IMG/VR virus record: IMGVR_UViG_3300025848_000037
From: an uncultured virus (IMG/VR IMGVR_UViG_3300025848_000037)
Taxonomy: Duplodnaviria; Heunggongvirae; Uroviricota; Caudoviricetes
DNA length: 64,000 nt
Strand: one strand, 5' to 3'
Position 1 is the stretch's first letter. Each line of letters begins with the position of its first letter. The position numbers were made by a program, and so were the translations under genes. Below the pieces are notes generated by a model. It was not told where the DNA came from and did not search any database. It saw only the letters and a program-made list of their open reading frames with translations. Below, piece by piece: positions 12,201 to 15,200 of this stretch.

Positions 12201-15200
12201 AGTTGTGCATGATTGAGCCAAAGTTGGCGCTCTGCACCTTGGTTCTTTCGCCTACTTCGCCGAGCTTGGCTCCCTGCTTGTCGAACTCCTTTTGGATGCC
12301 CTTGACGACGGCTTCCTTCATGCGCGAGAAGGCCAGGATGTCGCGCATCGAGGTGGCCATGTTCTCGGCAGTTTGCTTGTCCACCTTTGTTTCCTGGGTG
12401 TCGTAGGACACGCCAGCAAAGGTGCGCTCGCGGCGAATGTACTGGCCCACTTGGGTCAGCATCTTGGCCACGGCCTGCTGCATCGGAATGCCGCCGTTCT
12501 TGATGGCGTCAGCCAGGTCAGAGATCTTGTCTACGGCCAGCTTCATGTCCGTGCTGGAGTAAAGATCCATCACGTCCGGGCGCTTAGCGTAAGTGGCCGA
12601 TGAGAAGAACGTGCCGAATGCCTTGCGGACCAAGTCGCGGACAAACGCCGCACGCCCTGTGACCAAACTTTCGCCGTTCTTCTCTTTTTCGCGCTGTTCT
12701 TTGGTTCGAGCCTGCTGCTCTCCGGCGCCGCCAGCGTTGTGGCTTTCGTCGAAGATCATGTAATTGGCTGCGCCAAAGTGGCTGACAAACCGCATGCGCT
12801 CCGTCATCTTCCCTTTGACAGTTTGCAGCTGGCTGTATGTGGTGAAGATGACTTTGAAATCGCCCAGGCTGTCATCAGCCTGCATCTTCTTGAGCACGCC
12901 CTCCATGGCCGCCCCGGTTTTGGGCGCCTTGAGCGTCAGGTTGTTTTCCGTGATCTCGCCATTGACCGTGCGCAGCAGGGTGTACGGAATCTTGGCGTCA
13001 GAGTTTGTGATCAGGATCTTTGGCTTGGCTGTGTCTAGCGCCAGCTCATCGGTCATGCCGATGTCGTCCAAGTCGCGGATCATGTCCGAATACAGGTTCG
13101 GCTTTTCCGTGACGAAGATTGGGATCTTGTCATTGACCAGGGCGTAACGGATCATGCCGGCCACAACACGGCCCTTACCAATGCCCGTTTGGTCGCCAAT
13201 GATGAAGCCCTTGCCTTCCTCAGCGTTTTTAATTGCCAGTGCTAGCGCATCAATCTGCTCGGCGGAGAACAACTCGCGCACCGTCTCAGGATCCATTTCC
13301 AAAGACGTAGCGACGTAATCATCCAAACTGCCCTTGTCGGCTTCAACCTTTGCCAGCGACTGCTCAATCGAATCGGCCATGGCGCGGGGCACAAGAGTGC
13401 CGACCGAATTGGCCATTGAGTGCGGGTTATAAGTAACTTGTCCAGCCGTTTCGGTTTCCTGGCCAGCGCGGTCTGTTAATCCAGATCCGACCCGCTCGCC
13501 TGCGACAACGCTAACTCCACCCAGAGGTCCAGGTCCGACTCCTTCAGCGCTTCCTTTGCGCCCTCCAGGGGTTTGCTCACCTGGGCCGGCCACTGCTCCG
13601 CGATCTCCGACAGGTTCAGAAACGTCCTGAGCTCCAGGTTGTGCTGCACCAGTGAGGCTCCCAGTTGTTCCGGGTCGTCCACCTTGGGGAGCCCCATCTT
13701 CAGACACGCCAGGTTGGACGCCTCTAGTGGGTCGTCCTCCGCCAGTGCCAGATCCACCACCCGGTCGGCCAGCGCCTCCAGCCACTCCTTCTTCTCCAGT
13801 TTCCCCGCCTGTACCAGGACCGCTGTCAGTTGCGCTGGGGCGTTGAGATTCTCCGGGTACCACGCGATCATTTAGCTTCTCCTTCAGTTGTTCGTAGGAC
13901 GTGATCAGCTGCGGCAGGTCAGCCGCGGGCAGGTCACGCTGCGATTTGCCCACCCCGTCAATCACGATGACATCAACGGGGTAGGTGGTTCCTTGCTTAG
14001 CGTACAGGTTGCCGCCAGCAGTAAAGTGATCGACGACGTTGTACTTGTTGTACAGGTCGTAGTAGAACTCGCGCTTGGCCTTGCCGCGATAGCCTTCGCG
14101 CCGGCCTTCCTCAGTGGTTGCTTGCACGCCGCCAAGGATCAGCACCGCCCGGCCATCGGGCATCATCGCCAGCAGAGACTGGTTTGCAATGTCGTGGTCG
14201 ATGTTGCTGATGTCGCCAACCTTGCCAAACGGCGGGTTCTCGATGACCACATCAAACGATCCAGGCTTGACCTTGGATTCCAAAGCATTGCCTTGGGTAA
14301 CCGTGGCGTTCGGGAACAGCTGCTTGAGCATTGCGAACCGGTCGTCGTTCAGCTCGTTGAGTGTCAGCTTGCCCTCAGCGGCACCGATCACCAGCATGCC
14401 GTTGCCAGCAGTGGGCTCGTAGACCGTGGTGTCGTTCGTGATGCCGGCCAGCTCAGACGCGATAAACGCCAACGGCGCAGGGGTCGAGTAGGCCTGGTTG
14501 GCCACGCTGGTCGAGGTGCGCACGCCCAGGTTGGGCTGGCGGTTATACAGGTCCACCAGGCGGTCATAGATAACCTGGGGGCTGCGGCCCTGAGCCCGGC
14601 CTGCCTGGATGATTTCCCTGGCAGCCATAACCACGGCGGCCTCGACCACCTCGTCGGCGACCTTGGCGTCAGTAGTGCCAGGCTCGATCTTCTTTCCAGT
14701 CAGCTCTTCAATGAACTTGCGGGCTTCGACAATTGACTTGAACCCATCACCGCCGATCAAGCGGTCGCGCAGCTGCTCAACTACCTTGGCATCAGTAATG
14801 CCAGGCTTGGCCGCAGGAGCTTCCTCTGCAGGCGCTTGCTCGGCTTCTTCCAGCTCATCCAAGGAATCAACAGAAACAACGTCCTTCTTGCTGCTGGCTC
14901 CCTGATCCTGATACTTGCCGGCCATACCGATGTACGCGCCCTGCAGGTGGTCAATCGTGATCTCGTCTGCAACATCCTTGCCCAGCTTCTGGCGGATCAG
15001 GTTCATCACGTACCTGGCCGCTTCCTTGAACTTGATATACCCAAGGCGGAAGGCCGCGTCCATGAGCTTGGTCAGGACGGGGATGAGTTTTTGCTCTTGC
15101 TCGGGAACGATGTTCAGGCGCGTGCCCTTGCCAAGGATGTCACCCAGGTCACCGAGGGCGTCCTCGATATCCTGCTGAGCCTTGGCTTTGGCGGCGGCCT

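Follow-up and report, generated by a model that had tools for sequence, protein, structure and literature searches.

The nested reading frame and its locus

The stretch of DNA studied here, IMG/VR virus record IMGVR_UViG_3300025848_000037, comes from an uncultured virus of the class Caudoviricetes and is 64,000 nt long; as a whole it is referred to below as the window. On its minus strand, at 13476..13871, lies a 131-codon open reading frame (ORF) that very probably is a real gene for a protein. It is nested, in the +1 frame, within a giant gene of the virion module, 3808 codons long (6256..17682). The small ORF runs from an ATG at 13871-13869 to a TAA at 13478-13476, and is the longest of the nine same-strand nested ORFs of at least 60 amino acids (aa) within the giant gene. 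It was first noticed in an original prediction, made from the letters of the window alone, which described a same-strand +1 ORF with AAGGAG 7 nt before its ATG and a stop at 13476; all of these coordinates and signals are present. The features of the locus are as follows.

13476..13871, minus strand: the nested 131-codon gene, recognised from its homologues, from frame-specific selection and from an AlphaFold2 (AF2) model of its product, P0001
13872..13874, minus strand: +1-frame stop TAA immediately 5' of the nested ATG, read from the sequence
13879..13884, minus strand: Shine-Dalgarno sequence AAGGAG, 7 nt 5' of the nested ATG; the same bases encode the K-E of a conserved giant-frame motif, LKEKL
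13479..13523, minus strand: the last 15 codons of the nested gene, under constraint in both frames (nested tail ...S-x-S-D-L-D; giant-frame GERVGSGL)
13476..13872, minus strand: giant-frame Gly/Pro/Arg tether of ~132 residues (giant-protein residues ~1271-1402) at the methyltransferase-helicase junction
13873..14565, minus strand: N6-adenine methyltransferase (MTase) domain, giant residues ~1040-1270, with EPTAGNG and NPPF motifs visible
11122..13446, minus strand: Strawberry-notch-type superfamily 2 (SF2) helicase module, giant residues ~1413-2187 (Pfam AAA_34, Helicase_C_4)
6256..17682, minus strand: the giant 3808-codon polyvalent gene, a phage-type MTase-helicase dyad with an LPD38 domain (Pfam, PHROG)

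Since the TAA at 13872..13874 abuts the ATG, a start of the nested ORF further upstream is impossible. The giant-frame product over the overlap is, as originally described, a Gly/Pro/Arg-rich linker, in which 135 residues include 41 Gly, 14 Pro and 10 Arg.

Conservation of the nested gene among relatives

Twelve database homologues of the nested product were found, all 131-132 aa long and 53-99% identical to it, aligning without gaps and differing by conservative substitutions. A profile search of 1.84 billion cluster representatives matched 105 clusters, including 66 with E<=1e-10. Within these searches, it was mainly as calls from short contigs that the small protein surfaced, while the related giant proteins, which make up at least 1596 clusters at 90% identity, are annotated as continuous proteins. 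This agrees with the earlier expectation that standard gene callers would overlook the gene: callers that forbid long same-strand overlaps miss it wherever the giant ORF is called. This very large family of giant genes in phages would thus gain a gene that had been missed.

Fourteen full-length IMG/VR loci, fetched through the small protein, have both frames open, a nested ORF of exactly 131 codons and the start context gaaggagaaRctaaATG. The same arrangement recurs in distant subfamilies (L018 and L019, at ~40% identity, and L031, L032, L034 and L035), and in a prophage of a Burkholderiales genome (L026). For a systematic sample, 80 IMG/VR loci were fetched through the helicase only (a set that overlaps contigs already seen), of which 77 extend 976 nt or more upstream. 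All 77 have an uninterrupted giant frame across the junction, and in 66 of these a +1 ATG-ORF at the same place matches the hidden Markov model (HMM) of the family (E<=1e-5), with a length of 128-154 codons and, in one case, 185. These 66 loci yield 51 unique proteins, mostly of 131-132 aa, from phages of 36-68% GC. As controls, the longest +2-frame ORFs matched the family HMM in 0/80 loci, and the other nested ORFs of the giant gene that fall within the range of the loci gave no comparable matches in relatives (0/3). Taken over all loci examined, GC content spans 36-69%, and identity of the nested protein falls to ~30% and then below profile detection.

Start signals were inspected by hand in 20 loci. 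An ATG is present in all 20, AAGGAG in 19 (the 20th has GGAG), and a stop, TAA or TGA, is the codon directly before the ATG in 18. Over the ATG, the giant protein has N in some loci and D in others, and the ATG is nonetheless kept in 20/20. Most of the 66 loci that match the profile also have a Shine-Dalgarno-like sequence within the 20 nt before the ATG. Downstream of the start, a W-Y/S-P motif (residues 4-6) is conserved within a generally conserved stretch of residues 1-17, and free-standing relatives of the protein begin at the equivalent position; they also retain its C-terminal tail motif. The original prediction had named homologues with +1-frame stops or a lost ribosome-binding site as what would count against it, and the relatives turned out differently, most of them keeping a profile-matching ATG-ORF and nearly all of those inspected keeping AAGGAG.

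Outside these environmental sequences, cultured phages (INPHARED) gave nothing by tblastn of P0001 and a relative, P0021, nor by blastn of the region, and PLSDB plasmids gave no match by tblastn of P0021. Scans of viral contigs with the single proteins P0022, P0021 and P0020 were likewise without matches. The sole return of a metagenome scan with another relative, P0040, was L036, a spurious pattern match and not a relative.

Selection on the two reading frames

Frame-specific selection was estimated with our own simplified, OLGenie-like pairwise count of nonsynonymous (N) and synonymous (S) changes, with bootstrapping over codons. For the overlap, 13 sequences gave a dNN/dNS of 0.49 in the nested frame (bootstrap 0.37-0.63) and a dNN/dSN of 1.07 in the giant frame (0.82-1.48), and 15 sequences gave 0.45 and 1.08, respectively. 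The flanking MTase and helicase DNA shows the opposite pattern, the +1 frame standing at 0.84-0.85 and the giant frame at 0.15-0.20. Only the last 15 nested codons are constrained in both frames (0.28 nested, 0.34 giant). Among the 13 unique sequences, variable columns at nested codon positions 1, 2 and 3 number 66, 53 and 96 of 131, and identity to the window is 54-58% in the nested frame versus 38-46% in the giant frame. Amino-acid constraint in the overlap thus rests on the nested frame, and giant-frame residues are neutral. A frame-specific test of this kind had been proposed for the locus, together with the claim of a hidden gene whose by-product in the other frame is the apparent linker, and both come out well: the nested frame is under purifying selection, the giant frame evolves neutrally, and homologues retain the ORF.

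What selection sees in the giant frame is its openness. With the nested protein held fixed and synonymous codons drawn from the usage of the flanks, 7-13 giant-frame stops would be expected in 17 of 20 loci (P(open)<=0.001) and 1.5-4.4 in the other three, which are high in GC (P 0.004-0.21). Broken down by GC content, the expectation is 2.8-4.4 for the three loci of 61-63% GC (L018, L019 and L031) and 1.5-2.6 (P up to 0.21) for the two of 68-69% GC. Zero were observed throughout. Across 54 unique nested DNAs, codons that precede a codon starting with AA, AG or GA end in T in 0/2243 cases, compared with 7.1% at other positions. Such figures show strong selection on the giant frame to stay open and point to its being read through, so that both products are probably made from one stretch of DNA. 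The overlap would then be a clean natural case of dual coding, in which residue identity is selected in one frame and mere openness in the other, with a measurable avoidance of T-ending codons.

Codon usage, composition and possible artefacts

A codon adaptation index (CAI)-like measure was calculated with 12 other long genes of the window as reference. Over the overlap it is 0.787 for the nested frame and 0.609 for the giant frame, the latter lying below all values found elsewhere in the giant gene (0.813 +/- 0.036, minimum 0.732, in 104 windows of 131 codons). The use of the phage's preferred codons by the nested frame, one of the initial clues, is borne out by these values. The G/C-ending codon bias of the nested gene is explained in part by the need for the tether to stay open.

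Base composition by codon position is less telling. Giant-frame GC at positions 1, 2 and 3 changes from 0.61/0.42/0.67 gene-wide to ~0.8/0.8/0.36 in the overlap. A weaker flip occurs in other low-complexity (Ala/Pro/Gly-rich) parts of the giant gene, where 17 of the 23 flagged windows lie, and since the flip is not specific to the overlap, composition alone is no evidence. One such part is the Ala/Pro/Gly-rich N-terminus of the giant protein (16257-17682, minus strand), which combines a weaker flip with +1 ORFs of 71-86 codons. These translate into Arg/Trp/Cys-rich sequences, and those that fall within the range of the loci are unmatched in relatives, so that they serve as a negative control.

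Contigs from two DNA runs of different studies are identical across 13000-14400, with no changed letter and no insertion or deletion (indel). Two compensating frameshift errors, or an ancestral domain read in frame with the giant protein, were considered as explanations of the overlap and rejected, because independent runs agree, neither frame is interrupted in any of 77 loci, and the domain is not found in frame in any giant protein. When synonymous codons were shuffled with the giant protein held fixed, the +1 frame stayed open in 0.4-10% of trials; the evidence from homologues is far stronger than this result.

Properties of the small protein

P0001 has an isoelectric point (pI) of 4.26 and a net charge of -14. 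Five other family members that were checked have pI values of 4.05-4.50, making all six acidic. An AF2 model of P0001, built from an 18-row alignment, has a mean predicted local distance difference test (pLDDT) score of 82 and a predicted template modelling (pTM) score of 0.77, and consists of a short N-terminal beta unit followed by helices, with a C-terminal tail that is disordered but conserved. The protein had originally been described as an acidic, amphipathic and helical one; its acidity stands, and its purely helical nature gives way to a mixed alpha/beta model.

Sequence searches of P0001 against Pfam, PHROGs, NCBIfam and PADLOC returned 0 families at E<=0.01, and two or three other stand-alone members likewise returned no family from PHROGs, NCBIfam or PADLOC. 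Fold searches gave values no better than E 0.6 against the PDB with Foldseek and E 0.56 against BFVD, and a best Z of 3.5 with VIA-align (wide). SAP-like rows among the VIA-align results (Z 2.2-3.0) were rejected as being at noise level, and the ESM Atlas offered a weak lead to DUF5717, at 0.88. From its sequences, the small protein appears to represent an undescribed family of acidic domains of ~130 residues. The acidity of P0001 is compatible with a DNA mimic. No mimic of the Ocr/ArdA type is among the listed Foldseek PDB, VIA-align and BFVD matches, which are weak enough that they do not exclude one.

How the small protein might be made

Ribosomes would initiate internally on the mRNA of the giant gene, at the conserved Shine-Dalgarno sequence and ATG that belong to the small gene, and so make the small protein. 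This is proposed because the ATG, the AAGGAG and the preceding stop are kept so widely among the loci inspected, because the W-Y/S-P motif follows at a fixed place, and because free-standing relatives start alike. The giant frame, for its part, would supply merely a flexible Gly/Pro/Arg tether of ~130 residues between MTase and helicase.

SD-like (Shine-Dalgarno-like) elements can stimulate +1 shifts of the ribosome, as in prfB, and the +1 frame could be entered by such a frameshift from the giant frame, which would produce a truncated MTase isoform ending in the small domain rather than a separate 14-kDa protein. The AAGGAG could play that stimulating role here, and one database protein, P0017 (178 aa), does run from the C-terminus of the giant-frame MTase into the nested frame at about residue 18. 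Only one cluster shows this, however, and P0017 may reflect an indel or a sequencing error rather than a natural frameshift variant. Frameshifting would also leave unexplained why a stop directly precedes the ATG in so many loci, why the ATG survives N/D variation in the giant frame, and why residues 1-17 are conserved and the start is shared with free-standing relatives; no slippery site was noticed on reading around the start, where no dedicated search for one was made. We regard this route as very improbable. Slightly less probable still is that the +1 ORF is unexpressed and is conserved only because the giant frame, or the nucleic acid as such, is constrained. It is true that its last 15 codons overlap a conserved giant-frame motif, but the giant frame is without residue constraint overall (1.07-1.08), changes that are silent in the +1 frame build up at about twice the rate of those altering it, and substitutions peak at the nested third codon position. 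Moreover, other nested +1 ORFs of the giant gene are unconserved (0/3), and the domain is a normal part of bacterial proteins.

Some results do weigh against the reading as a nested gene. Eleven of the 77 loci lack a match to the family profile, and these carry the most divergent giant genes, with helicase identities of 42-46%. In nine of the eleven, the range that was searched contains protein-like +1 ORFs with 75-143 codons, and in the other two (L113 and L115) an additional in-frame insert separates such ORFs, which lie further upstream, from that range. Several of the eleven ORFs are related to one another and to the ORF of a Burkholderiales prophage, G161 (BLASTP 1e-5 to 1e-19), which itself matches the family profile weakly (hhalign probability 46%); homology of this set to the family is tentative. 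The ratios given above come from pairwise counts of related sequences by a simplified implementation of our own, and their bootstrap intervals refer to codons and not to lineages. The flip in GC by codon position, as described above, is seen elsewhere in the giant gene as well. Lastly, contigs from RNA libraries cover only 13333-13478, 13595-13761 and 13957-14184; these metatranscriptome fragments, in which DNA carry-over is possible, show neither transcription nor a transcript end.

The ORFs of the divergent loci (L106-L116) and of G161 (L030:6685-7080, minus strand) are shorter, commonly of ~75-100 codons, with a motif of the type ...V.RMMS.N.LL.GNP...EFL..., and may constitute a second subfamily of the nested gene.

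Relatives outside giant genes and the origin of the overlap

The domain is a normal, annotated part of bacterial proteins. Piscinibacter defluvii has it C-terminally in a T5orf172/GIY-YIG protein (WP_128000194.1), over whose gene no giant ORF extends, and it is found behind a membrane-anchored ankyrin module and behind an N-terminal domain of ~165 residues. No match among the 1.84 billion representatives exceeds 425 aa, from which it follows that no giant protein carries the domain in frame.

Two classes of such proteins deserve a brief description. A member of the class with the ~165-residue N-domain, in genome G052 (L025:5443-7575), is a free-standing protein of 313 aa made up of the N-domain, a poly-Asp/Glu linker and the domain. 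Its gene is followed directly by a LEM-3-like GIY-YIG gene and stands opposite a gene for a PLD-SNF2 helicase, in an island that holds a tyrosine integrase and a Toprim/DUF3987 primase, and that looks like satellite or defence-island cargo. In the P0040 class, known from eleven cluster representatives, the domain is fused in front of a C-terminal domain of ~180 residues, the model of which resembles YbjN and type III secretion system (T3SS) chaperone folds (SigE, CesT, SycH, AmyR, YbjN; Foldseek probability 0.94-1.0, E 0.006-0.07).

The nested gene had originally been called overprinted inside the giant gene, which would make it the newcomer. The evidence points the other way, since its product is folded and occurs free-standing or fused in bacteria. 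In pairs of overprinted frames, the newer one is usually the disordered one. Here, it is the giant-frame linker that is of low complexity, which speaks against a de novo birth of the small gene in a pre-existing linker, with the bacterial forms as later escapes from phages. That history is a possible one, if distinctly the less probable, and has several things in its favour: every phage copy examined is embedded (77/77 loci), bacterial forms are rare (3/401 Burkholderiales genomes, one of them itself an embedded prophage copy), and the split arrangement that might have preceded a fusion was not found. It has to be set against an embedded product that is confidently modelled as a folded alpha/beta protein, a giant-frame product that is neutral in sequence, and a domain that is joined outside phages to four different partner domains. 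With even chances or slightly better, we prefer the view that the small gene came first and that fusion wrote the Gly/Pro/Arg linker over it. This history is preferred because a folded and widespread product is paired with a neutral, low-complexity other frame, and because an MTase and its SWI2/SNF2 partner can be encoded either as one fusion or by neighbouring genes (Iyer et al. 2017, PMC5512222). An MTase gene and a helicase gene, once separate, would have become fused by read-through of the small gene in another frame, and the fusion would have given a disordered tether at no extra coding cost and left the small gene intact. Two considerations tell against this order of events: no split arrangement of MTase, small gene and helicase was found, and the bacterial free-standing forms could be escapes from phages. 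If the fusion history applies, it suggests a route of domain fusion that needs no deletion of the intervening gene.

Possible functions

It is conceivable, and we favour it only tentatively, that the small protein, acidic and of alpha/beta type, is made in cis with the giant protein and binds to it as a partner (an adaptor, chaperone or inhibitor). The suggestion is based on the fixed position within the dyad, on a putative co-transcription with a late virion-module gene, and on fusion partners of protein-binding type. The position is kept from 100% identity to beyond profile detection, and the partner domains are of protein-binding or effector types (ankyrin, GIY-YIG, YbjN/T3SS-chaperone-like). 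Entrenchment alone could also explain the persistence, because the nested gene is undeletable without cutting the giant gene. Among the results that tell against assigning this or any role are the absence of family matches to P0001 and the weak fold matches described above; the role originally suggested, of chaperone, inhibitor or DNA mimic, gains no support from them. A complex prediction for the small protein with the MTase and helicase segments scored 0.00 against a mark of 0.32, and counts neither way.

As the main alternative, it could be speculated that the small protein is unrelated to the giant protein and is an anti-defence or immunity-like inhibitor of host effectors, such as GIY-YIG nucleases, in which case its location in the linker would persist only since deletion would break the giant gene. 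The fusion to T5orf172/GIY-YIG agrees with this, as do the LEM-3-like GIY-YIG and PLD-SNF2 neighbours in the integrase/DUF3987 island, the further fusions to ankyrin and to the YbjN/T3SS-chaperone-like domain, and the acidity (pI 4.1-4.5 in 6/6 members checked). There are only two GIY-YIG nuclease associations, though, a small number that weakens the protein-partner suggestion too; no PADLOC model matches the domain itself, and a late virion-module gene is awkward for an early-acting factor unless the protein is packaged. An anti-defence role appears unlikely on balance.

Returning to the fusion history together with a protein-binding role, we consider it about evenly balanced whether the following holds as a whole: that an old stand-alone gene was swallowed when the MTase and helicase genes of an anti-restriction protein packaged in virions became fused, that the junction has been kept across a large family of environmental phages, and that the small protein is the founding member of a protein-binding domain family. 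If true, this domain family would be common to phage polyvalent genes and bacterial conflict islands. In phages the domain is linked to anti-restriction proteins of the DarB-like type, and in bacteria it has GIY-YIG, ankyrin and chaperone-like partners, which makes it a candidate player in phage-host conflict.

The giant gene and its phage

The window is a segment of a tailed-phage genome, with genes for the large terminase subunit (52701-54197), portal (50233-52692), major head protein (46437-47348), an endolysin and a spanin, and a gene for a homologue of DNA ejection proteins (19312-20463) adjoins the giant ORF. On the giant protein, Pfam places AAA_34 at residues 1462-1772, Helicase_C_4 at 1963-2187 and LPD38 at 3504-3698, all above the Pfam cut-offs; PHROG methyltransferase matches fall at residues 1060-1185, and a DarB-like PHROG match is weak. 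With an adenine MTase, a helicase of the SWI2/SNF2 clade and an LPD domain, the giant gene has the parts expected of a phage polyvalent MTase-helicase dyad. An HExxH-type motif (...ARHEIVHSLEQ...) at giant residue ~2470 suggests a zincin-like peptidase domain; no Pfam model reported one. The window also holds a second giant ORF, of 2428 codons (31638-38924, minus strand), with no PHROG match at E<=1e-5.

Nine freshwater metagenome runs, with nine study codes, carry the phage nearly complete (0.81-0.98 of the sampled words), and runs dated from 2017 to 2025 contain parts of it, indicating a recurrent freshwater phage. Related prophages were found in 2/401 of the Burkholderiales genomes sampled.

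Comparison with known systems

In lambda Rz/Rz1 and similar spanins, a small gene is nested in the +1 frame of a larger phage gene on the same strand. The likeness to the present case is close in that the small gene is wholly nested, has its own start signals and is often missed by gene callers; both products are made from Rz/Rz1, and probably here too. The enclosing gene here, however, is 3808 codons long and has no part in lysis, sequence constraint falls on the embedded frame alone while the enclosing frame adds just a low-complexity tether, and the embedded protein has free-standing relatives and is not a lipoprotein. Ocr and ArdA, which are small acidic anti-restriction DNA mimics, offer a second comparison: the protein described here is also small and acidic, phage-encoded, and tied to a protein of anti-restriction type. 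Its compact alpha/beta model differs, and similarity to them in sequence or fold was not found in Pfam, PHROG, Foldseek PDB, VIA-align or BFVD.

Overprinting in general has been well reviewed (PMC8227390, PMC3494269). Small-virus overlaps such as those of phiX174 likewise have two coding frames and one product that is odd in composition and probably disordered. The present overlap belongs to a double-stranded DNA tailed phage, of which the window alone is 64 kb, and its odd, disordered product is a segment of the enclosing gene and not of the nested ORF. Because the odd product lies in the enclosing gene, the polarity is probably reversed, the older gene being the one over which a linker was written.

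Iyer et al. 2017 (PMC5512222) have described a DNA methylase-helicase dyad in polyvalent proteins of phages. Like the DarB-type dyad of that article's main text, the giant protein has an adenine MTase (NPPF) followed by a helicase of the SWI2/SNF2 clade, here of Strawberry-notch type. LPD38, given there as a phage-only domain, is present in the giant protein, and the gene sits in the virion module beside the ejection-protein gene. In the main text of the same article, the words 'overlapping', 'frameshift' and 'linker' have 0 occurrences and a nested gene at the junction is not described; full-text searches of the literature also turned up no report of such a nested gene in polyvalent proteins of the MTase-helicase kind. 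Nested +1 phage genes, and overprinting as such, are therefore already known, and what is new here is the family of small proteins, its location at the junction of the dyad, the asymmetric selection between the two frames, and the probable reversal of the polarity of overprinting.

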